Below, piece by piece: positions 45,104 through 64,000 of a stretch of 64,000 nt of DNA (the first letter of the stretch is position 1; every line of letters starts with the position of its first letter). Source of the DNA: an uncultured Methanosarcinales archaeon (GTDB lineage Archaea; Nanobdellota; Nanobdellia; Woesearchaeales; CAYVYK01); contig CAYVYK010000011.1 of NCBI GenBank assembly GCA_964455675.1, forward strand, positions 1 to 64,000. Reading direction: 5' to 3'. The position numbers and the translations under genes were made by a program. Under the pieces are notes generated by a model. The model ran no database searches and was not told where the DNA came from. It was given only the letters and a program-made list of their open reading frames with translations.

Positions 45104-45108
45104 TCAGA

Positions 45109-45750: not shown

Positions 45751-45824
45751 GGCTCACCTCTCTATTGAAAAACTGACTCTTTCTACATATAAATCTATCT
45801 GTCACCATTGTACCTGTTTGTATG

Positions 45825-46295: not shown

Positions 46296-46375
46296 AGCAG
46301 AACTCCTGGTGAAAGGGGTTTATATGTTTATTGAAAAGAAAGGAAGAAAAGATGAAGAAAAAATGAAAGCAGTTA

Positions 46376-47623
46376 TCACATTGTTGCTGCAGTCATCAAG
46401 CGGATCTTGGTCTCCTGAGGACGGACCCGGCACTGCATGCCGACGAGGTGCATGACCTTTGCTCCTTCAGCAATCTGCACGAGATCCTTCTCGATCACGC
46501 CATCAAACACAACAGCATACACGCCGGAGTTGAGCGACTTAATCGTGGACCCAAGCTCGGTTACAGGAACCTTACCAAGCACGTTCAGATTGTTATCCAG
46601 GATGAACGCACCCTTCGTGCCAATGAGCTTTTCCAGCATCTCCTTGAACGACTTTCGCTCGTTCATTGAAACGGAAGGCATCTGAGCAGGAAGAGGCTTC
46701 TTCATCGGAAAACGAGGGGGCTGCTGTGACGGCGCTTGCGAAAATCTCTGCGGCCGCGACATCGCCTCACCATTCAAAGCCTCCGATTCCTTATTCAGCT
46801 CGTACTTCGCTTGCTCTGCAGGAATCCTGCTGCGCAAGGACTTGTGGATCTCCTTCTTTGCGAGTTCCTCGACCTCTTTACCGTCGGGAGCACGCGCCAC
46901 AAAGTCTATTTCGGCAACAGCTATCAATTCCTTCAAGATGAGATTGCCACCTCGGTCGCCATCGACAAAGGCGGTGATCTGCTTCTTCCTCGATAATTCA
47001 ATGATCGTTTCAGGAACAGATGTCCCGTTGATCGCAATAGCGTTCTTGAATCCGTGATGGAGCAGGTTGACGACGTCAGCACGACCCTCGACAACAATGA
47101 CTTCCTCTGATTCATCAATAGCGGGGCCAGCAGCAAGACGATCCTTGCCATACTCACGAATCTCATTCACACGAACAGAAGCTGCAACTTCCTCAGCAAG
47201 CTCCTGTGAATCTGGCATCACTTCGTCAATCATTCCCCTCAGAAGAGACTTTGCACGCTCAACGACGAACTGGCGCTTCGAAATGCGAACGTCCTCAATA
47301 TTGTCGACGTGAATCTTTGCATTGCAGGGGCCAATACGCTGAATGACTTCTAAAGCAGCGCCTATGATTGCGGTTTCTGCTTTGTCAAGAGAAGAGGGAA
47401 TGATAATCTTCCCGGCAGTCTTTCCTCCCTTCGTCTCGGTGTTAACCTCGATTCTACCAATGCGACCCGAGCGCTGTAGCTCGCGCAGTTCCAGATCGGA
47501 ACCTAGCAACCCCTCGGTCTGGCCGAAGATAGCACCGATGACATCGGGCCGATCGACAACGCCCTCAATCTCAATGTTTGCGTGAACAATGTACTTACTG
47601 GTGACTGGACTAATTTTTCCCAT
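46376..47623 (-). CDS. dnaG: archaeal DnaG (primase-like, exosome-associated)
   Basis: GVVDRPDVIGAIFGQTEGLLG, VVEGRADV, DGDRGG (TOPRIM); start reassigned to MGKISP. Confidence 0.95.
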   Translation of the reverse strand: MGKISPVTSKYIVHANIEIEGVVDRPDVIGAIFGQTEGLLGSDLELRELQRSGRIGRIEVNTETKGGKTAGKIIIPSSLDKAETAIIGAALEVIQRIGPCNAKIHVDNIEDVRISKRQFVVERAKSLLRGMIDEVMPDSQELAEEVAASVRVNEIREYGKDRLAAGPAIDESEEVIVVEGRADVVNLLHHGFKNAIAINGTSVPETIIELSRKKQITAFVDGDRGGNLILKELIAVAEIDFVARAPDGKEVEELAKKEIHKSLRSRIPAEQAKYELNKESEALNGEAMSRPQRFSQAPSQQPPRFPMKKPLPAQMPSVSMNERKSFKEMLEKLIGTKGAFILDNNLNVLGKVPVTELGSTIKSLNSGVYAVVFDGVIEKDLVQIAEGAKVMHLVGMQCRVRPQETKIRLMTAATM

Positions 47624-49500: not shown

Positions 49501-49609
49501 ATATAGGAAAAAACATGGAGGGTTTTTATTATTTTGGTTTACGATAGAGCGAGAAGCAGGACGCTTCACAAGCAAAACTCTTATAAATCACACACACTTG
49601 AAATGAGGC

Positions 49610-50593
49610 ATGAGCACTCCCATCCAGCATTACATCAAAAAACTCAAAGATTCTGGATACAGCGACCAAGTAATCCTTGATGAGTTCAAGAATAAGGGGT
49701 ATGAAGAACACATCATCAAAGAGGAACTCAAGAATTACCATCACACGCTGAAAGAAAAGGAACCACCAACCACAGCAGAAAGGTATATTGCCATGGTCGG
49801 AGCAGGATGCGTCGTGCTTTTCATGATCTGGGTGATGAGCAGAACACAATCATCACCGTTTTGGATTCTTGTCGGATTCCTCCCAAGCCTCTGCGTCGTT
49901 GTGCTTACCCTTGTGCTGATCGAGCAGATGCCACGAAAACACAAAGCGTACCTGTGGGTGCTGCCACTCCTGACATCAGCAATCTACTACACGCTTGGAA
50001 TGTCCACGCTCGAATTGGATGACCGGATGGACCTTGGCGGAGTTACCATGCTCAACTTCATCGTGGGCATGCTCTACATATTTCTCATCAATTTCCTCAT
50101 GCACCGACCTTTCGAACTGCCAGCAGCAAAGCCTACAATCAGGCGAGCAGAACCACAAAAAAAACAAAAAATTGAGGAGAGCATCCAGGCCCTCGAAGAC
50201 AAACTTAAAGCCATCAACTTTGCAATCGGAAGAGTGTACCGGCGGACAAACGGAGGGACGCTTGAGATCAGGAACAAGATCAAAATACCTGCAGAAGTCT
50301 ACAACTTCTTCAGCCAGATAACAGCTGAGCACGCGCAAGCGCATCCAGCACAAGTAAAACAAATCCTTCTGGACCTGCAGCAAAAACTCAAGGCGCTCGA
50401 AAAAACCGAAAAAGAACTTTTCGGAGAAGGCATCTCAACACTCAAGAACCTCAAGAGACATTGGGATGGGAGCAACCGAGTCCTTGACGTCCTCGCATGG
50501 AATGACGACGATCCAGTCAACAGCTACTACACAAGCGCAGAACAATTCTGCAAGGAAGCAATTGAGGAACTTGACAAGATCGCCAAGAAGTAA
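49610..50593 (+). CDS. membrane protein with helical N- and C-terminal domains
   Basis: 4 TM segments; TTATAAA about 25 nt upstream. Confidence 0.75.
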   Translation: MSTPIQHYIKKLKDSGYSDQVILDEFKNKGYEEHIIKEELKNYHHTLKEKEPPTTAERYIAMVGAGCVVLFMIWVMSRTQSSPFWILVGFLPSLCVVVLTLVLIEQMPRKHKAYLWVLPLLTSAIYYTLGMSTLELDDRMDLGGVTMLNFIVGMLYIFLINFLMHRPFELPAAKPTIRRAEPQKKQKIEESIQALEDKLKAINFAIGRVYRRTNGGTLEIRNKIKIPAEVYNFFSQITAEHAQAHPAQVKQILLDLQQKLKALEKTEKELFGEGISTLKNLKRHWDGSNRVLDVLAWNDDDPVNSYYTSAEQFCKEAIEELDKIAKK

Positions 50594-50647
50594 TACTTGT
50601 TCTTTTTTATACAAAACCATATAAAATAAAGATGACTCTATACTGAC

Positions 50648-51004
50648 ATGACAGTCTTCGTCGCAACTCTTGGGAGTGATACCGGAACACGCAAGCACGT
50701 CCAGCGTATCATCGAAGAAGGAGAATGGGACAAGAGCGTTCTCATCACGACAAAGGATGCCCAGACAGGATTCACCTGTGCCAAAGACATAACGTGGGTC
50801 ATCGTGGATACAGAACTCTTTCTAACACCACTTAAGGAACACATAAAGAAGGCCATAACAGGGAGCATTGGATTTGGAGATGTAGCAGTAAATTTTGTAT
50901 CGGGCGGCGGAAAAATCCATATGGCTACACTTGGTGCACTTCTGGAACTCGGAGCAGGCATACGACTTATCGCGCTCACGCCGGAAGGCGTACGAGAGAT
51001 CTAA
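50648..51004 (+). CDS. stand-alone CARF-like Rossmann protein
   Basis: VFVATLG first strand, VLITT, VNFVSGGGKIHMA. Confidence 0.55.
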   Translation: MTVFVATLGSDTGTRKHVQRIIEEGEWDKSVLITTKDAQTGFTCAKDITWVIVDTELFLTPLKEHIKKAITGSIGFGDVAVNFVSGGGKIHMATLGALLELGAGIRLIALTPEGVREI

Positions 51005-51072
51005 AAAAAAAGAAAAAAATCCCCGGGGCGACGGGGAGAGGTGCGAGGATTACAGAACAGTAGCAGACATCA

Positions 51073-51227
51073 TTACAGCACGTCTTTAATGCCACCAAGC
51101 TCAACCCAAACTTTTCCTACGCTTGGGTACCTCCCTACGGTCGGTACCACCGCTCCGAAAAGTTTGATCAAAAAAAAAGCGCCTAACGGCGCATCATAAC
51201 ACATCCTTAATGCCACCAAGCTCAACC
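51073..51227 (-). repeat. duplicated radA 3' end flanking an inverted-repeat element
   Basis: 21 bp identical at 51086-51106 and 51207-51227; both copies encode VELGGIKDVL-stop; caaacttttc/gaaaagtttg inverted repeat at 51107-51166. Confidence 0.85.
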
Positions 51228-52240
51228 TGGAAGGGCGCTTCACCTTCTGCAAGATTAGGGCTGTCGACAAGTTTGGCAACACGAGAACCCTTCTTGCCTT
51301 TCCGCAGGTAGATACGGAATGTCGATGCATGGCCAACGATGTGACCACCAATCGGCGCGGTTGGATCACCAAAGAACTGGTCGGGTTTGGACATGACCTG
51401 ATTCGTCACATACACACAAAGATTATGCATGTCCGCGACCTTCAGCAGCACGTGCATGTGACGATTGAGCTTTTGCTGGCGATCAGCAAGAGTCCCGCGG
51501 CCAATATACTCCGCACGGAAGTGCGCAGAGAGCGAATCAACGACGACAAGCTTCACGTTCAGATGTTCCTTAGATATAAGGTCATCAATCCGTTCAGCAA
51601 GCAGCATCTGATGATCTGAATTATATGCTCGTGCAACCTTGATGTTTGCAAGTATCTTCGTTGGATCAAGGCCTGCGCCTTCCGCAAATTGCTTAATACG
51701 CTCAGGACGGAAGGTATTTTCCGTATCGATGTACACTGCGATAGCGGTTGGATCATCAATCTGAGTACGCACGCACAAAAGATGACCTATCTGCGTCTTT
51801 CCTGAACCATACTCACCAAAGCATTCAGTGATGGCACCAGTCTCAAAACCACCACCAAGCAGATCATCGAACGCTTTCGCTCCGGTCGTTATCTTGAACA
51901 CACGCTCACGGCGCGCGAGCAGATCCATCCCGGATTCAAAACCCATATCAAGATTAGCGCGCGCAGCGGCAATGATGCGCTTTGCAACCGCATCACCCAT
52001 ACCGGCTGCATCAATCAGTTCGCCTGGCGTTGCGACAGCGATGGACATCAGAGTGTTGAAGCCAACCTCACGCAACTTTGCAGCAGTTGCCGCACCAACA
52101 CCCGGAAGCTCTTCGATTGATAATTCCCGCCGGTCAATAGGCTTTTCAGATTTTTCTGGCGCTGCCATCTCCACCACAACCTGCTGTTCCTCTTCCATCA
52201 TGAGTTCCTGCTCCTGCATATATTTATTTGGTTTCTTCAT
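51194..52240 (-). CDS. radA: DNA repair and recombination protein RadA
   Basis: N-terminal HhH (LPGVG), GFESG, GEYGSGKT, YIDTENTFRPER, VVVDS, RQQKL. Confidence 0.97.
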   Translation of the reverse strand: MKKPNKYMQEQELMMEEEQQVVVEMAAPEKSEKPIDRRELSIEELPGVGAATAAKLREVGFNTLMSIAVATPGELIDAAGMGDAVAKRIIAAARANLDMGFESGMDLLARRERVFKITTGAKAFDDLLGGGFETGAITECFGEYGSGKTQIGHLLCVRTQIDDPTAIAVYIDTENTFRPERIKQFAEGAGLDPTKILANIKVARAYNSDHQMLLAERIDDLISKEHLNVKLVVVDSLSAHFRAEYIGRGTLADRQQKLNRHMHVLLKVADMHNLCVYVTNQVMSKPDQFFGDPTAPIGGHIVGHASTFRIYLRKGKKGSRVAKLVDSPNLAEGEAPFQVELGGIKDVL

Positions 52241-52256
52241 CGTTTCACCTGGGTTA

Positions 52257-52529
52257 TTATAACACCGCTTCCTCGGTTACGGAAGGGTCGGCATCTTGTC
52301 CACGTAGGACAAGATACTCGTACGCCTTCTGAAGGACGAGGGACGCCTTTGGCAAATCATTCACCCGCAAGGAATTGGCAGTCTGCCATGTACCTTTTGG
52401 ATCCATATAGCGGCGCTGGAGAGAAATGGTTCGGTACTCGGCAGCCTTGCCATCCCTCGATGTGCCCTGATTTTTCCACACGGTTGCGGACACAGCTCCC
52501 GTGGTAAACTTCTTTTCTGGTGCTTGCAT
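52257..52529 (-). CDS. small putative ssDNA-binding-like protein
   Basis: VSATVWKN...ISLQRRYMD..G.W...SL...DLPK pattern; GAGGTGA RBS; start could be 52565. Confidence 0.6.
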   Translation of the reverse strand: MQAPEKKFTTGAVSATVWKNQGTSRDGKAAEYRTISLQRRYMDPKGTWQTANSLRVNDLPKASLVLQKAYEYLVLRGQDADPSVTEEAVL

Positions 52530-52886
52530 AACAATCACCTCATTGCTTTTCGCATTTTGTTTCATATCTCCCGTCGGATATCTCTTCACCGGAGATTGAG
52601 GATAGCTACTACACAGATGGGATTTCCTTAAATAGGTCATTTTAGCGGTTGGCCAGTGGCTCGTGCTTATTTTCTATATAGTAAATATTATACAAAAAAA
52701 TAATGACCGTGTGCGCGAAGGGTTCGCAATCATCCCTCACGCGGACAAACAGCGTCTCTCAGCGACATGTTAATCGCCACGCGACAAAGAAACATCGCAG
52801 CACACTTCACCCCGCGGTGAACTGTACTATTGGAGATGAGAGACACTACAAAGTCAGAAAGTAGATGTGACCCAACCTACCGGGAT

Positions 52887-53018
52887 TTACACATTCCGTC
52901 GCCTCAACCGAAGAAGAAGGCAGATGAGAATGGCCAGCCCGATGGGTACAACGATGTAGTGAAGCCAATCCACCCATGTGGGTGTTGAAAGGGCTTTCCA
53001 AAAACTCTCCCAGTTCAT
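52887..53018 (-). CDS. 43-aa single-pass membrane peptide (absent from the ORF track)
   Basis: AAGGAG RBS, then MNWESFWKALSTPTWVDWLHYIVVPIGLAILICLLLRLRRRNV-stop: TM plus basic tail. Confidence 0.6.
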   Translation of the reverse strand: MNWESFWKALSTPTWVDWLHYIVVPIGLAILICLLLRLRRRNV

Positions 53019-53077
53019 ATCACACTCCTTAGTTTTCGAGGATCCAGACTTGACTCTTCGGATTTCAGTTATCGGGC

Positions 53078-54040
53078 TTAAGGAACTGGATTACCCTGCT
53101 GCGGATCACCCTGAACAGGCTTTACGCTGCAGTGTTTCTTGTAGCAATCGTCCTTGCACCAGTCATACTGCAATCCCGCGGCAGTCTTGTCGTGATCGTA
53201 ATTGTTCGCACAGATTGAGAGGCCAGTGTACAAGCAGGCAAGCAGGACGCAACCACACACTGCAAGACCAAGCCAGAGCCCGCCACCACCACGCTTCAGG
53301 AGGCTTGCGAGACAGGCGACAACACCAGCAACACCGCAGGTCAGCATGCAGTTCTCAACACAGCCCTGCAAGCGGTTTCCGGCAAGCGTCATTGCGCGGT
53401 TGTACTGGTCCTTGCAATCATCGACGCATTCAGTGTATGCGGCAAGGTCACGGCAGTACATTTGAGCGTTCGTGCCTGCTTTCTCAACCAAATTCATCGC
53501 CAGGGGAACAAAGGAACGCTCACGCTCGGGAGGGCTAGCCTGCCAGACATCCATGCAGAAAGTGACGCCGGAGACCAAACAATACACATCACCGAGATCC
53601 ACCTTCAAGACAGCAGAACCAACCTCCGTCTGAAGATCGATGATGTCCAGCTGCTGATCGGCCGGAAGATCCATCCAACTGATGTCCTCAGCAAAGGACT
53701 CAACAACCGCTTCGAACGAGGCAGACGGATCAGTCACGCGAGACATGATGAGCACATAAGCTTCATCAAAGTCCGCATCCGCGTTCAAAACAATGTCCTC
53801 GCGGGCATTGTATTCCTCAAATCCCACGAAGCCCCGCTCCGAGAGCAGACGGAAGAATTCCTCCTGGAACTGGACGAGCTCGGGAGGAAACGCAATGACG
53901 GGATCGCCTGCGTCCTCCACAACTCCCATGGGAATTCTCGCCGGAGGATCGCCGAACAAGGGCTGCATGCTGAATGGCATGAGCAAAAGAACCAGGAAAA
54001 TCCCTTTCCACAACCGATACGTCATGAGAGAATTTGACAT
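53078..54040 (-). CDS. secreted protein with Cys-rich hydrophobic C-terminus
   Basis: AAGGAG RBS; signal peptide; repeated CxxxC around a hydrophobic hairpin. Confidence 0.7.
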   Translation of the reverse strand: MSNSLMTYRLWKGIFLVLLLMPFSMQPLFGDPPARIPMGVVEDAGDPVIAFPPELVQFQEEFFRLLSERGFVGFEEYNAREDIVLNADADFDEAYVLIMSRVTDPSASFEAVVESFAEDISWMDLPADQQLDIIDLQTEVGSAVLKVDLGDVYCLVSGVTFCMDVWQASPPERERSFVPLAMNLVEKAGTNAQMYCRDLAAYTECVDDCKDQYNRAMTLAGNRLQGCVENCMLTCGVAGVVACLASLLKRGGGGLWLGLAVCGCVLLACLYTGLSICANNYDHDKTAAGLQYDWCKDDCYKKHCSVKPVQGDPQQGNPVP

Positions 54041-54148
54041 GACTACTACTCCTTCTCGAAATGGGCACACGTGCCCGAACACACATCTACCGACGGCATT
54101 TCCACACCATGCGGAAAACAAAAACCGCTCGGCAGTTCCTTCCCATCC

Positions 54149-54185
54149 AAAAAGGGAAGCCGATCATGTGACTGATCGGCTTCCC
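54149..54185 (-). terminator. intrinsic terminator
   Basis: Perfect 13-bp stem gggaagccgatca/tgatcggcttccc, followed by T5 on the minus strand. Confidence 0.75.
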
Positions 54186-54213
54186 ATGCTACACACTCAG
54201 TCATTCCTCCAAT

Positions 54214-54624
54214 CTAGGAGGGCGGGAGACGCATCTTGCTCAATTCGCCTGCGCCCTGCAGAATGATGTGGTTGAAGGCCGCTTGCGCGATCTGCAGACA
54301 GGTCACCTCCCAGAGCCGGTTCTTCACCATGAGGGAGACGAAGTCGACCTGAGCTGAGAGGCACAGCTCGACATCGCGGCGGATCGACTTGAGCTCATCG
54401 ATCAGCTTCACGACATCAGGGAGAGTGAGGATCGGCTGCGCCTTGTGCTGCTCCATGTACTCGAGGACTTCCCGCATGCCGCCCGTGAATACCTCAAGGC
54501 CCGTAACGTCACGACCGTCGATGGCCTTGCGTCGATCAGGAGAACGCTTAACGTCACGATTGAGTAGATCTGTGAGCGCCTGGAAGTCCTCGACTTCTTT
54601 TTTGAATCCTTCAACGTCCGGCAT
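54214..54624 (-). CDS. hypothetical helical protein
   Basis: AAGGAG RBS; followed by a terminator. Confidence 0.65.
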   Translation of the reverse strand: MPDVEGFKKEVEDFQALTDLLNRDVKRSPDRRKAIDGRDVTGLEVFTGGMREVLEYMEQHKAQPILTLPDVVKLIDELKSIRRDVELCLSAQVDFVSLMVKNRLWEVTCLQIAQAAFNHIILQGAGELSKMRLPPS

Positions 54625-54735
54625 TGGAGCATCTCCTTTTACTAGTGCCGGCTCGTCCGCGCGCCGCCCACCGAGGGAGGACCGAACGAGAACAATAGAA
54701 CCACGGTATTATGATAGTTCTCCGGTGACCGCTGT

Positions 54736-54939
54736 TCACATGCCGATCAGGCGACTGATGAACCGCCAACTCACCCACAGCAGCCCGAGAACCGTTGTCC
54801 CGAACAGCAGGATGAGGAAGACGAGCACACACCACTGCAGTCCCGTCAAGCGCGGCAGTGGCGCTTCCGAAATCGATTCACACGCCGGACAGAACTCCGC
54901 ATCTTCCGGCAGTTCCGCACCACACTCTTCACATTGCAT
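54736..54939 (-). CDS. zinc-ribbon protein with C-terminal TM
   Basis: CEECGAELPEDAEFCPAC plus TM; AAGGAG RBS. Confidence 0.75.
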   Translation of the reverse strand: MQCEECGAELPEDAEFCPACESISEAPLPRLTGLQWCVLVFLILLFGTTVLGLLWVSWRFISRLIGM

Positions 54940-54987
54940 GTGGAACTCCTTGTACTACCCGCCAGACCGGAGGGAAGTTGTGGCAGT

Positions 54988-55326
54988 TCAGCTACAGGGT
55001 TTCGTGCACTCGACAGAGAGATCGAGCAGCACGCCATCGATCCGCAAGAACGGCTTGATGCGCTCGGCGACCACCTGTAGGTCTTCACGATTCTGCGCGA
55101 ACACAACTCCGTAGCGCGTCGGCGTGAGCACGCACTTGTCACGAACACGAACACACCTCGTGTCACAGAATGCGAACTCAACACTCTGCTCAAAAGGCAG
55201 CCCGTGCAGCGCCGTCAGGATGCACTCGAGCAGGGATGTCGCGTCATCGCCCGGAACACCGTTGACGAACGCAAGATGAATCTCGATCAACATTCGACGA
55301 ATCTCGAACAACATTCGATCGCCCAT
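54988..55326 (-). CDS. hypothetical protein
   Basis: AGGAG RBS; same orientation as neighbours. Confidence 0.5.
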   Translation of the reverse strand: MGDRMLFEIRRMLIEIHLAFVNGVPGDDATSLLECILTALHGLPFEQSVEFAFCDTRCVRVRDKCVLTPTRYGVVFAQNREDLQVVAERIKPFLRIDGVLLDLSVECTKPCS

Positions 55327-55373
55327 ACTTGCTCCTATCCAGTCGTGCGAGACGGCAGGCCAATGAGGTTTTG

Positions 55374-55422
55374 AAAATAAACGGGCCGCCGCACATCAGG
55401 TGAATCAGCGCGGCGGCCCGTT
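55374..55422 (-). terminator. intrinsic terminator after the GHKL ATPase
   Basis: 13-bp stem aacgggccgccgc/gcggcggcccgtt, followed by a T-rich tail on the minus strand. Confidence 0.65.
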
Positions 55423-55459
55423 CAGTAAGACAGACGCAGCCATCGTCATGTACCAATGG

Positions 55460-56995
55460 CTATTTACCTGGCTGGAATCGCATCGCATCCACGTAGGGAA
55501 GCATCCATGACTCCGCGACGTCGATGAAGCCAGGGACTTGCGCTTGATTTGGCGCCATCAGACCTGCAAGCCTCGTCGCCACGAGGAACCCGATGTACTG
55601 CTGCAGAGCGACGTTTCCATGCTGCTCCGCATCGATCATGTCACGATGGGTGAGGTTGATGACGATCGCGCGAGCTTCGTCACCACCAGAACCGAGGCGA
55701 GCCCGCCAGAGATTCCCATGAGTCTCGTCGCCCTCCTTGAAGACGATCCGAAGCTGGGAACTCTGGACCTTATACGCCCGAGGCTTACGCGCCTTTGGCT
55801 CAGCACGCCGAATACTTGGCACCTCGGCCTTCTTGCGCACCTTCTTGCGCGTCTGCGTTGGTGGAGGTTCGGGCGTTCGATCGGGCTTCTTGAAGAATTC
55901 GGGAACGAGCTCGGGATCCTGGAAGATGTCACTCTCCAGATTCCGGATGACGCGCTCCGCGACCTCCATGAGGCGATCTTCCTCGCGCTGCTCCTTCAAG
56001 CGCTCAAGCCAAGGCTCTCCGTAGTCGACGACGAACTGAAGAACCGCGTCCTGAAACGCCTCAAGACCCTCGTTGACCTCAAAGTTCGTGCGGTCAGGAT
56101 CGATCGTGCAGAAATCCACGCGGATGCGACCCTGCACATAACCGCATCCGAAGAAGTGACTGACCGCGGGCCAGACGTCACGAAGGTTCGACAGCGGGAA
56201 CGAATACTTCCCCTGGTGGTCGACGAGCACGCGCGGATTCTTCACCTGCGTGACCGTGAGGTAGACCTCAAAGGACACCGTACCGCGCGGAGTCTCGATG
56301 AGGAATTCCTCGCGTCTCCCAGGAAACTCGATGGGGTGGACGATCTTTTCGACGGGAACTCCTTTCTCGTCCACAACCTCAATCCGGATCTTGATGCCGG
56401 AATCGCGGATTCTTCCCGGGAACGTCTGGGCGATAGTATCGACGATCTCGTCGAGCAGGTTTGGGATCTTCGCGAGCCGCCGGATGTGAGCGCCGTCAAT
56501 ATCCTGAACATCAATGTAGCTCGACATCCCGGCATAACGGTCCTTGAACCCCCAGCTCACAGGCAAGTGCTTGCCAGCGAATTCGACGTCCCTTTGGCCC
56601 GCAACCGCCTCACGGTCCAGAATGATCTCGAAGAACGGGGGCGGATTGTGGACCGTTGCATCGCGCGTGATGATGCGGTACTTGGCTCCAACAGCGAGAG
56701 GCGCGAGATTACCGATGCCCTTCTCGCCGATGTCGTCATCACCCTTCTGACGCTGACCGACGCAGTTGATCCGACGAGTGATCTCCTCAAGCGACGCGCC
56801 AAGACCATCATCCCAGGACTGGAGACGCCGACGCTTGAGATTCAAGCGGATAAGCGCAGTCTGCGCCTTCTTGTCGAGGAGATTCTGCACGAGCTCCAAG
56901 ATGACCTGTTCGAGCGTTCCATACTTCTGAGCGAGGTAGAGGGCAACGTTGCCCTGGTGGTACCCAAGTTTAACACCGAACGTTTGTTCAATCAA
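55460..56995 (-). CDS. GHKL (HATPase_c, MORC/MutL-like) ATPase
   Basis: ELVQNLLD, DDGLG, GEKGIG Bergerat motifs; C-terminal IVINLTH; TTG start after a perfect AAGGAGGT. Confidence 0.8.
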   Translation of the reverse strand: MIEQTFGVKLGYHQGNVALYLAQKYGTLEQVILELVQNLLDKKAQTALIRLNLKRRRLQSWDDGLGASLEEITRRINCVGQRQKGDDDIGEKGIGNLAPLAVGAKYRIITRDATVHNPPPFFEIILDREAVAGQRDVEFAGKHLPVSWGFKDRYAGMSSYIDVQDIDGAHIRRLAKIPNLLDEIVDTIAQTFPGRIRDSGIKIRIEVVDEKGVPVEKIVHPIEFPGRREEFLIETPRGTVSFEVYLTVTQVKNPRVLVDHQGKYSFPLSNLRDVWPAVSHFFGCGYVQGRIRVDFCTIDPDRTNFEVNEGLEAFQDAVLQFVVDYGEPWLERLKEQREEDRLMEVAERVIRNLESDIFQDPELVPEFFKKPDRTPEPPPTQTRKKVRKKAEVPSIRRAEPKARKPRAYKVQSSQLRIVFKEGDETHGNLWRARLGSGGDEARAIVINLTHRDMIDAEQHGNVALQQYIGFLVATRLAGLMAPNQAQVPGFIDVAESWMLPYVDAMRFQPGK

Positions 56996-57407
56996 CGGCC
57001 ACCTCCTTGCGGTCACTTAGAACCCGCTCCCTCATCATTTCGCTCGTGATCGCACGAACTGCCTCGAGGAACTCATGGAATGACCCGCCGAGATCTTGTC
57101 GCAGACGCACCCGATAGGTGCTATCATCCTCGTTGACGAGTTGTCTCAGGAGCGGGGTCAGCACAATGATCTGATCACCAGCGAGCTTCACCACACGATC
57201 CAAGATTGGGGATTTGTGCTTACCGGCAAGCAGATCGTCCAGTAACTTGCGGTACTTCTTCGCGGGCTTCAAACCCTTCAGCCAGTTCTGGACAGTTGTT
57301 CGAGGAACTGCTTTTCCGGTCTCCTTTCGGAGGTGCACGACGAGTGCGGCAGCTCCCTGTAGGTCGTGCTGGGCCATATAGGCCTCGAGCCTTTCCTGGT
57401 ACATCAT
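56988..57407 (-). CDS. XRE-like helix-turn-helix protein
   Basis: VPRTTVQNWLKGLKP; ATG overlaps the upstream TGA. Confidence 0.6.
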   Translation of the reverse strand: MMYQERLEAYMAQHDLQGAAALVVHLRKETGKAVPRTTVQNWLKGLKPAKKYRKLLDDLLAGKHKSPILDRVVKLAGDQIIVLTPLLRQLVNEDDSTYRVRLRQDLGGSFHEFLEAVRAITSEMMRERVLSDRKEVAVD

Positions 57408-57691
57408 GACCCTCGCACTGGCATGATCAAGACCTTCGGCCGATGGGTACCATGCCATACTATTACACCATCGACCATGATTCGGTAGTGCTGCTTTGTT
57501 TCCTCCCGTCGCTTTTTGCGATGGAGCTGCTGGCACTCCCGAACCAACCGTTGTTCGGACACTCTCCTGCCCCGAAACCGCAGACGAAAATTTGCCAACA
57601 GACTCGCACGACGATCAGTGTCGTACGGGTGCATCGTCGGCGGTCTCACAGCAAGGAGAAACTCTGTTTCTCTTTGAGTGAGTTTCATCAT
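57404..57691 (-). CDS. small paralogue of the upstream Myb-like protein
   Basis: Shares FL..V.PP.M....R....F..RF and VDGV.VW.G..RP.V with 57737-58312. Confidence 0.65.
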   Translation of the reverse strand: MMKLTQRETEFLLAVRPPTMHPYDTDRRASLLANFRLRFRGRRVSEQRLVRECQQLHRKKRREETKQHYRIMVDGVIVWHGTHRPKVLIMPVRGS

Positions 57692-57736
57692 GATACATTC
57701 CCTCGGAGGACCGCGCGACCCTACGCGATGGCGCAA

Positions 57737-58312
57737 TCAGAGCGTCTCGGTCGTGACTGATCTGAGCTCGACGTTCGGACGCTTGGAACCTGACCACACC
57801 TGGACGCCGTCCACGAGGAGAATGAAGGATGCTCCCGGTGCGCATGCCATGACTTTCGCTTCGGCCGCCGGAGCTACGGGAATTGCCCCACGCTTCCGCA
57901 GGACGTAGAAGTGCTGCTGGATACTGCGCGACGTGACCTTGCAGCCGAACGTTCGGTTGAACTTTGCCGCGCGTCGCTTCCACGACCCGCTCCGCTCGCC
58001 GAGCCCGATGATGAACTGATCCTGCTCGGGAGTGTACGTGTGCAGCGGTCCGCGGCCGACCTTGTTATTGATCACTTTCGCGACCCTGGCCTTCGGCGGC
58101 ACAATCGCGACGGTCTTGCCGTGCATCTTCCAACACTTGCGGATGAGGGAAGAGTCCTTGACCCACGCCGGAACGGTGGGAAACCGGGCACGGAATGCAG
58201 CAACGAACGCCTCACGCGCCGCGCCGTCTACAGTCTTCATCGAGGGCGGCGTCACGGAAGCCAGATACTCCATCTGAACTCTTGAGTAACGATATTTCTT
58301 GTGTTTCTTCAT
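57737..58312 (-). CDS. Myb/SANT-like repeat DNA-binding protein
   Basis: YTPEQDQFII...WKRRAAKFNRTFG..VTSRSIQQHFYVLR; AAGGAG RBS. Confidence 0.6.
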   Translation of the reverse strand: MKKHKKYRYSRVQMEYLASVTPPSMKTVDGAAREAFVAAFRARFPTVPAWVKDSSLIRKCWKMHGKTVAIVPPKARVAKVINNKVGRGPLHTYTPEQDQFIIGLGERSGSWKRRAAKFNRTFGCKVTSRSIQQHFYVLRKRGAIPVAPAAEAKVMACAPGASFILLVDGVQVWSGSKRPNVELRSVTTETL

Positions 58313-58473
58313 GAGTGACTCCTTGTTCTTCACAGGCAAGGCCTGCACCAATTACCGTTGACCGTTTACGACCTTATATCACGCACCAGGTGCAGAAGAT
58401 GCACCAAGGGTTAGAAGAATGGAACCCGAGGCGATCACCAACTCAGGATGATCGACCAAGGAAAGAACTTCCC

Positions 58474-58512
58474 AAAAAAAGGAGCCGAGGCGCGGGGATG
58501 CACCCCGGCTCC
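58474..58512 (-). terminator. intrinsic terminator
   Basis: Minus strand GGAGCCGGGGTGC-loop-GCGCCTCGGCTCC-T7 (stem with G-U pairs). Confidence 0.7.
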
Positions 58513-58643
58513 ATGGAAGCGCGACCCGTCGACAACCGCGCATGCCAACAAGTCAACTCCTCTCCCTTCCTTCCTCCTCCAATTTTTTGAAGAGATCGGA
58601 GCGCGCCTCCGAGATGTGCGCGGTAGGAGTTTACTCTCAAATG

Positions 58644-59489
58644 TCAGAGCTTAGGTACGGCTGGAATTGTCTGCACCATGATACCCACAAAGGCGGCAAT
58701 CATCCCCAGGTAGACTCCAAGGACGAGAAAAATCTGCCACCAGCGCATTGCAGGGGGGGCCTCCACCTTTCTCCGTGCATCATCCAGAATTCCGTGAGCG
58801 ATGAGAGCGTCCGGAGTGCTCAGACGATCCTCATGCTGCGCCAAGAATTTGCCCATGCGCTCAAGAATTCTTGGCGCAACGAACAGATTCTCATAGTCCC
58901 GTCTGATACTGCTGAGCGACATCAAGGCGAGCAGCCCGAAAAACATGGTGTTCCTCGGACTGCCCAGATATACTGCCAGCAGGAAGAGTCCGCCGATAGC
59001 GGCCACCTTCAGACTGAACCCGAGAACGCGGTGCACGGAGTAGGCAACCTCACTAACGATTCCGCCGCCATCGAGCGGATAGATCGGCAGGAGGTTGAAG
59101 AGGTTGATGAGCGCGCAGATCAGCGCTGCCCTTGCACAGAAGATGTTGCCAGTGTGCACGAAAATCTGCGCGAGCACAACGCAAAACAGGAAACCAAACA
59201 TCGGACCCATGAGGTAGATGATAGCTTCCTGCCAGCGAGTCTTGGCACGCTCGGCACTCAGCGCGACGCCCCCCATGAAGGGAATCATGAACACGCCGAG
59301 CGTCTTTATCTTGAAGAATCGGGACGCGGACAAGTGGCCCTGCTCGTGCACGAAGATCATGAGGAGCAGGATCCCGCCCGTTGCCCAGCCGAATAGAAGC
59401 GCGTAGGCAAGGAGCGATGCCACGAAGAGAACAAGCTTGGTCCGCAAAGCGTGTTCCTTCACCTGCGTTGCCATGAATGACATACTCAT
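58644..59489 (-). CDS. site-2 protease / M50 metalloprotease
   Basis: HEQGH, IPFMGGVA, MGP, NLFNLLPIYPLDGG. Confidence 0.9.
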   Translation of the reverse strand: MSMSFMATQVKEHALRTKLVLFVASLLAYALLFGWATGGILLLMIFVHEQGHLSASRFFKIKTLGVFMIPFMGGVALSAERAKTRWQEAIIYLMGPMFGFLFCVVLAQIFVHTGNIFCARAALICALINLFNLLPIYPLDGGGIVSEVAYSVHRVLGFSLKVAAIGGLFLLAVYLGSPRNTMFFGLLALMSLSSIRRDYENLFVAPRILERMGKFLAQHEDRLSTPDALIAHGILDDARRKVEAPPAMRWWQIFLVLGVYLGMIAAFVGIMVQTIPAVPKL

Positions 59490-60343
59490 CCTCGATCCTG
59501 CGGCTTCGCAATCCAGGCAGACCAGAGCGGAAAGCTCAGGCCTTCGCGCACGAGGGTGGCAAGCACGGGAAGCCGCAGGGTATCGTGCTTACCGACCGAA
59601 CCTTTCGATGGCGCCCCGTGAACACGCAGCTTCAGCATCCGCACGATGTCCGCGATGACAGCGAGCGGATTTCGTTCGCCAGGTTCACGCTGAACTGCCA
59701 TACCGCACATCCAGTCGGCAGGAAGCAGGACATCTGCGTCGAGCGACGGAATCGAGATTGCACGCGAGGTCAGAGGCTGGAGGGATGCCAGCACAGCCTC
59801 TGACAACTTCCACACATTCTTCAGTTCGGGACTCTCCTCGCAATGCGTCAGGTACAGCGTGTCCTTGTCACCAAGAGGGATCGCGACGACGACTCCGGGC
59901 TGTACCGCGGACCGAAAGACTGACGCATCGCGCAGCAGCAGCATCTTGCCATCCGCGATCGCCTCGCCCACGCACACGTCAAGTGACAGAACGACAGCGG
60001 CGAGGAGATAGGGCGGCTCGGATGCGCAAAGATAGGACCGCACCGGCGCGCCGATCTGATCCGCCACAAACTCGCAGAGAAAATCGCGGTTATAGCCAAC
60101 CAGTACCTTCATCTCCGGAATCAAAGTGAGAGAAGGCCTGCAGCGTGGAGCGAGCTGGGTCATGAAGTCCTGCTGCACAAACATTGCAGGACTGACGTTA
60201 TCAGGGTACCAGTGGCACGTGCCGCCGACAAGACGCTCGACCGCGTTCACGATCGCAGCGGCGGAGTGCACCGATGTTCCGATGTTACGCTCTATTCCGA
60301 TCATAGCACCTCCATGTTCATCCCCTTGAAGCCGAATCAACAC
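59486..60343 (-). CDS. hypothetical protein
   Basis: Fills the operon gap; stop overlaps the start of the protease gene. Confidence 0.55.
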   Translation of the reverse strand: MLIRLQGDEHGGAMIGIERNIGTSVHSAAAIVNAVERLVGGTCHWYPDNVSPAMFVQQDFMTQLAPRCRPSLTLIPEMKVLVGYNRDFLCEFVADQIGAPVRSYLCASEPPYLLAAVVLSLDVCVGEAIADGKMLLLRDASVFRSAVQPGVVVAIPLGDKDTLYLTHCEESPELKNVWKLSEAVLASLQPLTSRAISIPSLDADVLLPADWMCGMAVQREPGERNPLAVIADIVRMLKLRVHGAPSKGSVGKHDTLRLPVLATLVREGLSFPLWSAWIAKPQDRG

Positions 60344-60351
60344 GCCACCTG

Positions 60352-61029
60352 CTAGTCCTTAGCCGTGTGCGCGTCCGCGATGGCGTCCTCGATACACACA
60401 AGCAGGAGCGCGTGGGGAAGCGAGATGCCGCTCTCGTAATCCACGATAGTGACGACGTAAGTATCGCCATCTACGAACGTGGCCTCGCGATCGACATCAT
60501 AGTCGACGTTCCCCGCCAGGTCCTTGAGCTTGTGATTACTCCAGGCCATGTTGCCGTGCTTTTCCGAGCGGCCGACTTCCTTCTTGTCTGCGTCGTAAAA
60601 GTGGAAAACGTAGCTCAGTGGAGAGAACAAGCTGTCGAACGACTCCTCGCCGATGTGGCCGGTGACCTTGCCGCTGCCGTCGTAACAAATCGCGGCGCGG
60701 TTCCACTGAAAGAACCCCTTCTGCTCCTCCTCGCGAGCAATCACTTTGCCATCACTTGCCGCGAGCGTGAAGATGTCGCCGAAGGTTTTCCACGATTTAC
60801 CCTTCACGGTGGCGACGATCTCCTTGTTGACAATGAGGTCGTAGTGCTTGCCAAAGGAGAAGCGCTTCTCGCGGACGGTGATCGACCTCGCCGCGAACAG
60901 CTTGTCCATCGGCTTGTCGGTGCAGACCGGGTAATCGTCGACGAACGCGTAGCCGACCACGCTGACCAGAATTATGATCGCGGGCACCAGAAGGATGAGG
61001 GACTTGCTCGATTTCATGCTGGATTTCAT
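60352..61029 (-). CDS. LURP-one/tubby/scramblase-like protein with N-terminal TM
   Basis: VREKRFSFGKHYDL...VKGK...GDIFTL repeated beta-hairpins; terminal helix LLLVCIEDAI. Confidence 0.65.
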   Translation of the reverse strand: MKSSMKSSKSLILLVPAIIILVSVVGYAFVDDYPVCTDKPMDKLFAARSITVREKRFSFGKHYDLIVNKEIVATVKGKSWKTFGDIFTLAASDGKVIAREEEQKGFFQWNRAAICYDGSGKVTGHIGEESFDSLFSPLSYVFHFYDADKKEVGRSEKHGNMAWSNHKLKDLAGNVDYDVDREATFVDGDTYVVTIVDYESGISLPHALLLVCIEDAIADAHTAKD

Positions 61030-61112
61030 ATTTGATACCTCATGCGGGAACTTGCAGGGAGTTCCCGTACACCAAGGCACCCTGCTGCCTCTGTTGTTGA
61101 TTCTGCTGTTGC

Positions 61113-62486
61113 CTATTCCGCGGACAACGCTTCTGCAGACAATGCGCGAGGCGCGTCCGGCTCAGGCATCTTAATCACGACTCGATTCTCTGCGACCTCA
61201 CCACCCTCGCCAGAGAGTTCCCTCAGAATCGCAGCCTCCTCCGTAGAATCATCCGGCAGATGATCCACCACATTCGCGAGTGCGGCCATCGAACTTAGCT
61301 CATCCATCATCTCCTGCGTGCTGGCGGCGACGGCCGTCAGTTCCTGCATTGACGGCAGAGCGACTTCCCTTGCCACCCTGCTCGTCTGAAGATGAAAGAT
61401 GTGCGTACCCAAGATGTCAAGCTGCTGACCGTACACATTCGCGAAGTTCCGTTGACGACGAAGAGTGGAACGCACCTCGCGGATCTTCGACGCCGCGCGA
61501 CGTTTATCCAGTACTGAGGTAGTAGCCGCGCCGGCAGACAGCAGATCCTGCTCTTCGTTCTCCAGCAGGTCAATCTGCTGCAGCGCCTCATCACGCCGTC
61601 GGGCAATGAGGACGCGAACCTCAGAAAGATGGTTCACCTTGCGGGCGAGACGCGCGTCCTTGGAAACGATTAGACGCACGCTCTGACCGAGGCGCGCAAA
61701 CAAGCGATGTGACTTCGCCTCAGGGGCGCCGCGATACAGCAGAGAAACTCCTGAAGCAGTGGAGACATGGAGCTCGCGATCCTTCTCTGTAGCAGCATGC
61801 ACGAGATCCACGGCAACAGCCGATGGAACCTCCAAGCACTCCGCCACCTCCTGGATCGTAACGCCGCCAGTGAGAAGCTGAGAGTTGAGCTCGCTGATCG
61901 CCTGCGCAGCACCCTCTCGATTCGCAACGGAGGGATCGAAGAGCGCAAGCAAAGCGGGGTTAATGCTGCGGTCAAGCGACAGCACCTTCCAGTGCTCGTC
62001 GACGAGCACCAAGGAGACGCTCTTTGGGACCAGCATTCGAGCACAATCCTCGACGTCCTGCTCGAAACCGGACGGGCTGAAGACGACGATGCACTGCGGC
62101 GTTTTACACGACACGACCACGCGGTTGAGGTGATCTAAGAAGTCCCTGCAGCCAACCTCGTCGGGACGATCATGGTCGAGATAGAGACGAGGAGGAGCGA
62201 GGACTGACACTGTGAGGATGCTCCGCACATACCCGCCACCATGCAGCGGACTCCAACCGAGATGAAACATGGAGAATCCGCGACTTAGCGGCAGACTATC
62301 GATTACGTCCTGGTCGTACACGCGCCGATCGATCAGTTCAGCACGAAGATCCTCGGCAAAGTCGAAGAACACCCGCTCGCGACGACCCGGAAGCAGACGT
62401 GCAGACGCAGAGCGCAGATTTTCCTCAAGCCCTTTGAGGAACTCGTCCTCCTTTTTACGAAACCCCCTTGTCACTGTACCATTCAT
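61113..62486 (-). CDS. multidomain protein: alpha/beta domain, winged helix and PspA/ESCRT-III-like coiled coil
   Basis: VVFSPSGF...LVLV; VTIQEVAECLEVP; long helical hairpin ending in acidic EEAAILREL. Confidence 0.55.
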   Translation of the reverse strand: MNGTVTRGFRKKEDEFLKGLEENLRSASARLLPGRRERVFFDFAEDLRAELIDRRVYDQDVIDSLPLSRGFSMFHLGWSPLHGGGYVRSILTVSVLAPPRLYLDHDRPDEVGCRDFLDHLNRVVVSCKTPQCIVVFSPSGFEQDVEDCARMLVPKSVSLVLVDEHWKVLSLDRSINPALLALFDPSVANREGAAQAISELNSQLLTGGVTIQEVAECLEVPSAVAVDLVHAATEKDRELHVSTASGVSLLYRGAPEAKSHRLFARLGQSVRLIVSKDARLARKVNHLSEVRVLIARRRDEALQQIDLLENEEQDLLSAGAATTSVLDKRRAASKIREVRSTLRRQRNFANVYGQQLDILGTHIFHLQTSRVAREVALPSMQELTAVAASTQEMMDELSSMAALANVVDHLPDDSTEEAAILRELSGEGGEVAENRVVIKMPEPDAPRALSAEALSAE

Positions 62487-62556
62487 GATGAACACTCCCA
62501 ATACGCTGGATAGTGCCCAGCGATGACGAGTAACAGGTTAATTGATACGCATCTCG

Positions 62557-63999
62557 CTAGCGGTCGCGACGCAGCAGATCCGCAACCACTCGAGGGATAC
62601 CAAGAGCACCACGAAGACCTCGGCTCGAGCGCGCGGCAGTCCACAGCTGCCGAACAGGCCCTCTCTGCATATACTCACCACCTCCCTCGGCGAGGAGATC
62701 ACCCAAGCCAACCTCATTCAGAAGCCCAGGCAGGTTCCCATCGCCGATGCCAGGAGTCAGGCGGTGCTTGCGATCATACCGGAAGCATGCCGCGCCACCC
62801 TGCTGCTCGAGCTGGGCAGCCAGCATCTGGATTTGGGTGGCGAGGATGACACTCGCGCCGTGCTGCTTGAGCCGCTGCAAGAGCGCGTTGCCCGCAATGT
62901 AGCCAGCCTGCTCCTGCGTACCAAACCCAAGCTCGTCGAGCAAGACGACCACAAGACGGCCGTCGACGTTCTTGATGCCCGCGAGCACGGATGCTGTTTT
63001 CTTCCAGAGGAGGGAGCACGTGGACGCGCTCTCCTTCTCGGTTGTCTTGACGAACACAACACCGAGGACTTGCTTGATGTTCGTCTTGAAGTAGCTGCCG
63101 AAGATGGGAAGCCCGCTCATAGCAGACCAGAGGTCGAGACCAATCGTCTTGAGCGCTACACTCTTGCCGCCGCCGTGCTCGCCCGTGATGACGAGAATAT
63201 CACCGTTCAAGTCGGGAAGAGCGCCGATCGGCCGGGGCCGCTGATTCTCGCCGAGCACGAGGAGCTGGATCGGAAGCAGATCCTTGAACGCAACGACGTG
63301 ATCGTCACCATCCTGGATGTCAGCGAAGCAGATCGAATGCGGCAGCTTCTTCTCGCGCAGATCGTCCTGCATCTGGTGATACCGATGGATGATGCTCGAA
63401 ACGTGGCAGAGCGTCTGCATCGCACGATCGAAGAAACTCCTCGCATCTTGCGCGGCCTCGTAAAGCGCATGAAGCGCGGGATCGGTGTAGAGATGCTTTA
63501 GGGCAAACCACCGAAAGTACTGATCAGTGCCTGGGGACTTTGCGCCAAACTGCGTATAGAACAGATCTCCTGCGGACTTCTGCAGACGCGCCGTGAGGGC
63601 GGCGAGGCTTAGCAGGCGAACGCGCTCGGTGCGCTGATTCAGATATTCCCGACGACAGCTCTGCATCGCCGCCTGCTGCAGGGTCGTGTACCCGGCGAAG
63701 TCCTCACCGAAGTTAGCCTCGTAGCGTTCCTCCTGGACAACCGGATCGAGGCTGAAAATCTCGACCTTGAGGCCGCCATGATCATAGGCGAAGCGAACCT
63801 TGAGCTTGCTTTTGTTCAGCATCTCGCACAAGCTCTCGTTCCAACGAACGGACTCCCGCAGTTTCGTCAAAACCGCAGTCATCACCTCGAGAACCGTGCA
63901 GTCAGGGACCTTCGTGATCACCATCCGCTCGCACACACTGCGACGATGTTCCTCATTCGCAATGTCAATGCGACCCCTCTTCCACTCGCTCAGGAACGG
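62557..63999 (-). CDS. MutS-related ATPase (domain V), 5' partial
   Basis: ITGEHGGGKS, VLLDELGFGT, VILATQ; reading frame open to the window edge. Confidence 0.8.
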   Translation of the reverse strand, partial: PFLSEWKRGRIDIANEEHRRSVCERMVITKVPDCTVLEVMTAVLTKLRESVRWNESLCEMLNKSKLKVRFAYDHGGLKVEIFSLDPVVQEERYEANFGEDFAGYTTLQQAAMQSCRREYLNQRTERVRLLSLAALTARLQKSAGDLFYTQFGAKSPGTDQYFRWFALKHLYTDPALHALYEAAQDARSFFDRAMQTLCHVSSIIHRYHQMQDDLREKKLPHSICFADIQDGDDHVVAFKDLLPIQLLVLGENQRPRPIGALPDLNGDILVITGEHGGGKSVALKTIGLDLWSAMSGLPIFGSYFKTNIKQVLGVVFVKTTEKESASTCSLLWKKTASVLAGIKNVDGRLVVVLLDELGFGTQEQAGYIAGNALLQRLKQHGASVILATQIQMLAAQLEQQGGAACFRYDRKHRLTPGIGDGNLPGLLNEVGLGDLLAEGGGEYMQRGPVRQLWTAARSSRGLRGALGIPRVVADLLRRDR

Positions 64000-64000
64000 C

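Follow-up and report, generated by a model that had tools for sequence, protein, structure and literature searches.

What does a small operon that joins a GHKL-type ATPase to three small, DNA-binding-like proteins do in an uncultured archaeon of the Woesearchaeales, and how did it come to be there? The operon lies in the window, by which we mean the whole stretch of 64,000 nucleotides that was analysed. A preliminary description of this DNA placed four co-oriented genes here, and all four minus-strand open reading frames were confirmed. The features are as follows.

58481 to 58512, minus strand: terminator hairpin with U7 (z -3.9), which closes the upstream M50 peptidase gene and insulates the cassette
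58344 to 58405, minus strand: candidate control region with TG-A-TATAAG, four GGTGC and two AACGGT copies
57737 to 58312, minus strand: gene 1, 191 aa, pI 10.7, accessory gene of one subgroup
57404 to 57691, minus strand: gene 2, 95 aa, pI 11.5, short paralogue of gene 1
56988 to 57407, minus strand: gene 3, 139 aa, obligate partner of the ATPase
55460 to 56995, minus strand: gene 4, 511 aa, TTG start, GHKL+S5 ATPase (predicted structure, pLDDT 93)
55378 to 55424, minus strand: 17-bp hairpin with a U-run 3' of gene 4, likely terminator

The four genes are a real operon. Genes 2 and 3 share the ATGA overlap that had been reported, and genes 3 and 4 have 8 nt in common (TTGATTGA); each of the four starts follows a purine-rich, SD-like site, a strong one in the case of genes 1 and 4. 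The bracketing hairpin terminators are likewise present 5' and 3' of the cassette. Equal stability to the upstream hairpin (58512-58481) was reached in 1 of 200 shuffles. Two hairpins lie downstream of gene 4, the 17-bp one being the second, and none of 200 shuffles was as stable as this stretch (z -6.9).

Upstream of gene 1, TG-A-TATAAG at 58381-58373 is an extended -10-like element. By eye, GGTGC is found in four copies in the leader of the window's cassette, and AACGGT in five copies over three of five leaders of the Myb clade; AACGGT resembles the Myb core YAACKG. Neither motif is significant post hoc: of 1000 shuffles, 109 held an equally good hexamer and 113 an equally good pentamer. Because shuffles do as well, we treat both motifs as leads only. 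No shared alignment was found among the leaders of cassette loci.

The ATPase has the intact Bergerat motifs attributed to it, with E34, Q37, N38, D41, D62, G64, G66, K84, G90, G93 and G95 all present. Among 123 family members, E34 is conserved in 119, N38 in 122, D41 in 121 and D62 in 122, and the glycines G90, G93 and G95 in 122, 118 and 112; the family shows the GHKL signature ExxxNxxD, DxGxG and GxxGxG. About 290 residues align to MutL, MORC3 and SMCHD1, including an S5-fold second domain whose switch residue, R302, is R in 113 of the 123 and K in 6 (R/K in 119). The basic, proline-rich linker occupies residues 357-406 (15 K/R and 10 P per 50 aa), and its net charge is at least +4 in 85 of 123 members. 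Neither Pfam nor the fold search found a nuclease domain in the ATPase, in agreement with the preliminary description. Pfam matched no family in 27 ATPase tails, where only G, W, N, H and hydrophobic residues are conserved (n=123). The C-terminal domain scores Z 6-7 against minigluzincins, and the HExxH zinc motif of zincins occurs in the last 150 residues of 0 of 123 members. Profiles of the tail and of the partner's domain gave no credible match to PDB sequences.

A representative-based fold search, in which rows within 1 Z count as tied, ranked MutL (Z 18.6), SMCHD1 (18.3), MORC3 (17.6), B. subtilis MutL (17.5), MORC2 (17.1) and TRAP1 (16.3). MutL, which is also the best profile match (E 1e-9), shares the layout of N-domain, flexible linker and C-domain; however, the cassette's C-terminal domain is unlike that of MutL, and no more than about 5% of genomes have the cassette ATPase. 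The eukaryotic MORC2, MORC3 and SMCHD1 are tied-best matches (Z 17-18) and also have no nuclease, but identity to them is 12-14%, and the cassette ATPase has a different C-terminal domain and no CW domain, coiled-coil insert or hinge domain.

Foldseek placed GRP94, Hsp90 and TRAP1 first (E 1e-14), and the protein might thus be a miniature Hsp90-like remodeller, with the partner as dedicated client or co-chaperone and ATP switching this HTH regulator under stress or infection. TRAP1 aligns across residues 1-510 (388 residues, rmsd 13.7), the switch residue of Hsp90 is an Arg, as in the S5 switch loop here, and the NxxHP of the cassette's C-terminal domain recalls the Hsp90 motif INPxHP. That domain also aligns to the HtpG C-domain 1sf8, at a Z of 5.1 that is in the range of chance (rmsd 4.6, 93 aligned, no sequence match). 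However, Hsp90 has many entries in the PDB, and the representative-based search puts MutL, SMCHD1 and MORC at or above Hsp90, with lower rmsd. The cassette ATPase is about 100 aa shorter than Hsp90/HtpG and has a basic linker and a dedicated HTH partner, and the curated HtpG model from NCBIfam scores weakly, matching just 5 of 30 members (best E 2.2e-5) and not the window's ATPase. We consider a remodeller of this kind unlikely.

Of the earlier assignment to MORC-type ATPases, what stands is a MutL/MORC-type GHKL+S5 protein with no nuclease; by the published criteria tested, it is neither MORC nor paraMORC. In the sections of Iyer, Abhiman & Aravind 2008 (PMC2292703) used here, MORC and paraMORC1-5 are prokaryotic GHKL+S5 ATPases with sporadic lateral spread, and those that act on DNA have a nuclease or helicase as co-worker. 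The cassette resembles them in its GHKL+S5 architecture, intact ATP motifs, C-terminal extension and sporadic transfer across bacteria and archaea. Measured against the same sections, however, it has no conserved MORC motif and no ExxxH, HxH, TIR or RE-fold tail: a loose pattern for the MORC motif GhXhhpXXRhl in S5 matches 13 of 123 members with columns not conserved, the paraMORC2 ExxxH pattern in S5 matches 18 of 123 with no conserved column, and the tails of paraMORC3/4/5 (RE-fold E-D-ExK; TIR; HxH) were not found. ParaMORC1 is defined by a conserved C-terminal extension of its own, for which the text gives no motif. Where MORC and paraMORC operons carry a methylase, a restriction nuclease or an SF2 helicase, the cassette has an obligate helical/HTH partner.

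The suggested link to restriction or defence loci was not borne out by 139 neighbouring ORFs from the 27 loci, which are housekeeping genes or of no known family, with no defence-island context. No family of DNA methylases or of restriction nucleases is among them, although ORFs with no Pfam match could hide novel nucleases, and such helicases and nucleases as do occur belong to housekeeping families (RuvB/C, UvrABC, RNase R, NYN, Exo/Endo/Phos). Because the flanks are housekeeping and no methylase or restriction nuclease was found nearby, the cassette falls outside the tested MORC/paraMORC definitions. A paraMORC-type accessory whose restriction nuclease or helicase is encoded elsewhere and cooperates in trans would share the architecture and sporadic spread (PMC2292703, same sections), and the weak N-domain matches to BbrUII/HgiDII and MzaB models would fit it; given the missing enzyme families and the lack of conservation of family-specific motifs, we regard this as very improbable.

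Gene 3 encodes an N-terminal XRE/Cro-CI-type HTH followed by a conserved C-terminal helical domain (R99, R103, E123). The view that the small proteins are of HTH type was upheld, gene 3 being XRE and gene 1 having a three-helix Myb/SANT-like fold. Alone, the gene 3 protein has no Pfam match, and the Atlas returned only clusters with no name. The partner family's profile matches XRE HTHs (3op9, E 3.7e-6; also P22 c2), and one homologue, at locus L010, matches HTH_26 (E 1.4e-5). Across loci, the C-terminal domain carries the motif R..LR...E, and the N-terminus usually consists of XRE-type HTHs, whose number varies from 0 to 2. The domain is one family: leave-one-out recovers 29 of 30, with R99 conserved in 29 of 30, R103 in 28 and E123 in 27. 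In a GC-rich sister clade (L038, L041), the helical domain is retained and the HTH is absent, so that site-specific DNA binding is not invariant. A reverse search with this domain matched 21 of 401 genomes; the ATPase is also present in 20 of these, 19 of which were in the profile's training set. The one match among 379 ATPase-negative genomes (E 2e-5) is an unrelated-looking exported protein.

The preliminary description treated the four genes as a module. The genes do co-occur elsewhere, but the conserved unit is genes 3 and 4, the Myb-like gene being an accessory of one subgroup. The partner is directly upstream of the ATPase in 33 of 35 loci (31 of 33, plus both of two further sister loci), two being truncated, and 27 of 29 gaps lie between -20 and +34 nt. 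L088 is the one locus where upstream DNA is available and the partner is absent, and its ATPase has no ATP-binding N-terminus. None of the 35 loci has an intact ATPase on its own, and a solo partner copy is known in one case (G709). Partner and ATPase similarities correlate (Mantel test, rho 0.55, 0 of 2000 permutations, 27 pairs), which we do not take as evidence of binding, because co-transfer alone predicts it.

This arrangement bears on the main rival explanation, a toxin-antitoxin or abortive-infection pair, in which the XRE-HTH protein encoded upstream would serve as autorepressor and as antitoxin to a toxic effector, the ATPase, forming an addiction or defence module on HipBA-like logic. 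The small HTH gene comes first and is translationally coupled, the partner but not the intact ATPase is found solo, and the cassettes are patchy, stand-alone insertions at many sites. However, Pfam and PADLOC found no known toxin domain, and we know of no type II system whose toxin is a GHKL+S5 protein. Moreover, the asymmetry amounts to one case each, which would suit an obligate complex too. We judge this explanation rather unlikely.

Genes 1 and 2 are indeed paralogues (35% identity over 54 aa, pairwise E 7e-10, and 53% across the 19-aa tail). Gene 1 is predicted to contain two three-helix Myb/SANT-like repeats, at about 8-65 and 90-143 (pLDDT about 90), and a C-terminal beta-hairpin tail, VxGxxVWxGxxxP; gene 2 consists of repeat 1 and the tail, with repeat 2 missing. 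Myb is supported at the fold level only, at Z about 7: repeat 2 matches TRF1 (Z 7.1, rmsd 2.2, 63 aligned), Zeste (7.1), Cdc5 (6.3) and c-Myb R1 (6.0), all below Z 8 and tied with a phage small terminase (7.3). The Pfam Myb match is below cut-off in two of four gene 1 homologues, and an Atlas Myb2 cluster (0.79) is a lead only. The repeats also match phage HNH-associated Myb-like repeats (phrog_1891, E 1e-6), and they appear to resemble these as closely as they do eukaryotic Myb. Only five loci have a Myb-like gene, those whose ATPases are nearest to the window's, and among the loci compared it is duplicated in this genome only. Co-oriented accessory genes are mostly DNA-binding-like: besides Myb-like, they are wHTH with coiled coil, ParB-like and OB-like, the last three called by eye from sequences.

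The ATPase family is large (209 clusters), whereas the cassette is patchy, occurring in 22 of 401 genomes of one Patescibacteria order and, for the phylum of the host, in 1 of 251. It forms stand-alone insertions at many sites, and its GC exceeds that of the flanks in 22 of 26 CPR/DPANN loci. Trees were built by a quick method and FastTree, excluding fragments L008, L009 and L037; word-based searches recovered few relatives. In the window, the cassette lies within a larger feature:

53000 to 64000, no strand: GC-rich island with the cassette, GC 57-58% against 48% in the host, left edge approximate, reaching the contig end at 67221

A chimeric assembly was considered and rejected, as contigs of two runs from one study span the host-island junction (49594-54775 and 52442-57479) at even depth; one of the two, X1, may be the assembly source. 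The contig has no informative repeats, att sites or tRNA. A MutS-V-domain gene (62557-65058) lies near the cassette and is not conserved at other loci.

The island is foreign, and the cassette was acquired horizontally by a small-genome archaeon. The two genes could be a counter-defence pair, stranded in host chromosomes, that came as cargo of a virus or large mobile element which sampling has missed. T4 offers a model: its rIIA is coupled to a small partner gene, rIIB, which contains an HTH, although the T4 gene order is opposite to the cassette's. The part of PMC7824862 that we draw on describes rIIA orthologues as GHKL counter-defence proteins. Like the cassette, rIIA/rIIB and Tiamat, which act in virus-host conflict, have a GHKL ATPase. 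The elevated GC and the phage-like Myb repeats would fit such cargo. However, no family member was found in 50,697 phage records, in 72,556 plasmids or in four scans of IMG/VR, whose single match, L016, falls outside the family in the tree; no rII PHROG was matched, and the chromosomal copies keep their catalytic residues. We find viral cargo distinctly unlikely.

The earlier impression that no named system matches was sustained: PADLOC gave no system, with no match for the window's ATPase and one weak match for gene 3 (HEC-02B, E 0.002). Across the family, its models matched TmtA in 18 of 30 members (best E 3.7e-9) and MzaB in 3 of 30, short of what would define Tiamat or Mza, and capH in 1 of 30 partners. 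As far as the available part of its description goes, Tiamat is a long TPR and nuclease protein (bioRxiv 10.64898/2026.09.30.754977), whereas the cassette ATPase shows only weak TmtA matches. We found no paper on the cassette in literature that covers subscription journals thinly. The cassette is an undescribed one of ultra-small bacteria, of which the window carries one version. This analysis adds the Myb-type variant, the HTH-less sister clade and the archaeal copy, across whose junction contigs from two runs extend.

We tentatively favor, at somewhat less than an even chance, a horizontally acquired pair of partner and nuclease-free ATPase acting as a partner-targeted, non-cutting DNA clamp for conflict or regulation; clamping, silencing and defence are functions that we infer. 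The ATPase shares its GHKL+S5 fold with MutL, MORC and SMCHD1, its catalytic residues are conserved, and the partner gene lies directly upstream. By analogy with the GHKL family, the ATPase would dimerise through its C-terminal domain, ATP binding would close an N-terminal gate, and the basic linker would line the cavity. The partner's invariant helical domain may dock onto the ATPase, with its variable 0-2 HTHs selecting the DNA site, the cassette's own promoter included. Target DNA, most plausibly foreign, would then be trapped, looped or repressed, and the Myb-like proteins may be optional regulators or additional targeting factors. Counting against a clamp, Hsp90's first place in Foldseek and the Arg switch mean that protein remodelling fits too. 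The lack of defence-island context and the failure of the leader motifs in the post-hoc control also count against it.

A narrower version, prokaryotic MORC-type silencing, strikes us as rather unlikely. DNA-binding modules that can be exchanged (XRE HTH, Myb-like repeats, wHTH, ParB-like) would here act through the docking domain and recruit the clamp to silence foreign DNA, and the clamp would be traded between ultra-small bacteria and DPANN archaea. A eukaryotic precedent exists, in that sequence-specific factors recruit MORC to promoters, as with the AP2-recruited MORC of Toxoplasma (PMC10781626, in part); recruitment by DNA-binding factors is thus a shared concept, which in the cassette would be a parallel only.

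The cassette is a clear case of presence in both domains, and in Patescibacteria and DPANN archaea it is a candidate for a conflict system. If the clamp reading is true, the cassette would be a small, testable model for adaptor-recruited, MORC-like action, and its nuclease-free two-gene version would mean that clamping can by itself be the end result, as it is when eukaryotic MORCs silence DNA.

When the sequence was re-examined, the four genes, their overlaps, their ribosome-binding sites and the terminators all matched the preliminary description, which had also called genes 1 and 2 paralogues. Pairwise comparison bears out this paralogy, and gene 2 corresponds to gene 1 reduced to repeat 1 and the tail.

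Cassette genes and GC-rich stretches
58312-57737, minus: gene 1, Myb-like
57691-57404, minus: gene 2, Myb-like
57407-56988, minus: gene 3, helical/HTH partner (139 aa)
56995-55460, minus: gene 4, GHKL+S5 ATPase (511 aa)
53078-54121, minus: orphan of 347 aa; the N-terminus is signal-like, the C-terminal hairpin Cys-rich and hydrophobic; lies behind a terminator of its own
62557-65058, minus: 833-aa protein of the window island, running on beyond the window end (L004); its MutS domain V is divergent (E 4e-6)
1-38000 and 43500-46400 of host contig C7 (G000; L001-L003): second island, GC 57-60%, tetranucleotide signature same as the window island

The conserved unit is the partner gene plus the ATPase gene. 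The partner lies immediately upstream in 31 of 33 loci, the window counted; one of the two exceptions ends at a contig edge and the other lacks the ATPase N-terminus. The partner is also present at two additional sister loci. Its C-terminal helical domain, in which R99, R103 and E123 are nearly invariant, was recovered for 29 of 30 sequences in a leave-one-out profile test; the N-terminus of the partner carries zero, one or two XRE-type HTHs. In a 401-genome sample, the domain was found in 20 of the 22 ATPase carriers and, save for one weak, unrelated-looking match, in none of the 379 non-carriers. Because the matches in carriers are mostly training sequences of the profile, the informative finding is that non-carriers lack the domain. 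One carrier genome (G709) has a second, solo partner copy about 4 kb upstream of its cassette, with no ATPase behind it (L061 12515-13282).

It is the occurrence of an invariant helical domain beside variable HTHs that leads us to propose that the former would be a docking module and the latter exchangeable DNA readers, and hence that the cassette might be a targeted, non-cutting DNA clamp. Of the readings weighed, this is the likeliest, though at less than even odds. In GHKL+S5 modules, ATP drives rearrangement of complexes and movement of DNA (PMC2292703). The same two-gene arrangement could instead represent a toxin-antitoxin-like pair, which we consider somewhat unlikely.

The ATPase model (AlphaFold2, 123 sequences) has a pLDDT of 93. 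Its N-terminal 330 residues match MutL, SMCHD1, MORC3 and MORC2 at Z 17-19, with Hsp90 proteins slightly below in the same search; Foldseek places Hsp90 in the first rank. An Hsp90-like switch would fit the latter ranking, but is in our view improbable. The catalytic residues and the S5 arginine (R302) are kept in the family alignment. Next come a basic linker and a small alpha/beta domain that carries NxxH. This domain is similar to minigluzincins (Z 6-7) and to the C-domain of HtpG (Z 5.1), and it lacks HExxH in all 123 family sequences. Two Patescibacteria GHKL ATPases outside the family likewise end in an INxxHP domain (L028 7945-9842, L034 654-2258). By eye, a TrpR/YerC-like HTH gene lies upstream of the L028 ATPase, which suggests further HTH and GHKL pairings beyond the family.

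By fold, the cassette ATPase is clamp-like in the manner of MORC and MutL, but it differs from MORC and paraMORC2-5 in the features tested. PADLOC, PHROG and NCBIfam gave no system matching the cassette, save weak generic GHKL matches. No account of it turned up in the literature searched; the supplementary sequence lists of Iyer 2008 may bear on paraMORC1. Of 152 neighbour ORFs from 27 loci, 15 were excluded (open-ended, likely spurious, or Myb genes); among the 137 scanned and 2 added, neither a DNA methylase nor a restriction nuclease family appeared. The matches are housekeeping genes, and the sites mostly differ between loci. That the ATPase is a paraMORC acting in trans seems highly improbable.

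With 209 clusters at 50% identity (E <= 1e-10), the ATPase family is large and divergent; its named members come from Patescibacteria and one Aenigmatarchaeota MAG. Profile searches found it in 22 of 401 genomes of one order, 1 of 151 of another and 1 of 61 Aenigmatarchaeota; at 1e-20, 7 of 401 Patescibacteria matched, 4 of which belong to the family and 3 to other GHKL types. It was detected neither in 60 order-level relatives of the host nor in a further 250 genomes from the host's phylum. In the tree, the window ATPase joins a Patescibacteria copy and not the other archaeal copy (support 93-94, under the starred level), and this grouping hints that the two archaeal copies may be separate transfers. 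No member was found among the searched viral contigs, phages and plasmids, and we doubt strongly that the cassette is viral cargo left stranded. A sister clade (L038 106-1928; L040-L042) is found on metagenome contigs with a GC content near 70%; judged by their genes, these contigs look as if they came from a free-living bacterium. The partner in this clade retains the helical domain, with a short basic N-terminus replacing the HTH.

Accessory genes differ by clade, and some clades have none. Of the 111 loci stored, a set with much redundancy, only the window and L006-L009 have Myb-like genes, and whole-genome searches of five other carriers detected none. The three complete ATPases from Myb-gene loci form a single branch (support 99-100); the two fragments share 44-45% identity with the window ATPase. 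The modelled Myb-like protein has two three-helix repeats, then a beta-hairpin tail; for repeat 2, comparison with Myb/SANT-type domains gives Z 6-7, which a common arrangement can also produce. A match to the N-terminal repeats of a phage HNH family was found for two of four homologues. Ahead of the Myb-like gene, canonical sigma-70 promoters are followed by hairpin-forming leaders (L006 1-120, L008 6760-6845, L009 6760-6825), and L006 and L008 have in common the stretch GGTCTTTG...ACCAAGAATTG. Elsewhere, a small OB-like family lies upstream of three cassettes (L081 8706-9071, L065 3820-4176, and L083, where it is duplicated, 8543-8902 and 9014-9313). A co-oriented 435-aa protein upstream of another (L010 5141-6448) has, by eye, a possibly methyltransferase-like N-terminus; Pfam and PHROG searches gave no match for it.

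The host genome (1.72 Mb, completeness 99%) has 48% GC, and its RadA at 51194-52240 is of archaeal type. The island between about 53,000 and the end of the contig has 57-58% GC. Tetranucleotide usage of this island correlates with that of the host at r 0.60, where 49 host chunks average 0.93, and with that of the C7 island at r 0.96. Since the junction of host and island is spanned at even depth by contigs from two runs of a single study, we place the cassette in the archaeal chromosome. Read by eye, the C7 island contains vWA, ABC-type, prepilin-like and PilT-like genes and numerous orphans, with no integrase noticed. The MutS-domain-V gene is not kept next to other cassettes, and a family search with the 347-aa orphan gave no match. 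Across CPR/DPANN loci, cassette GC exceeds that of the flanks in 22 of 26. We conclude that the cassette is real, is undescribed in the literature searched and is a variant of the GHKL-clamp type.
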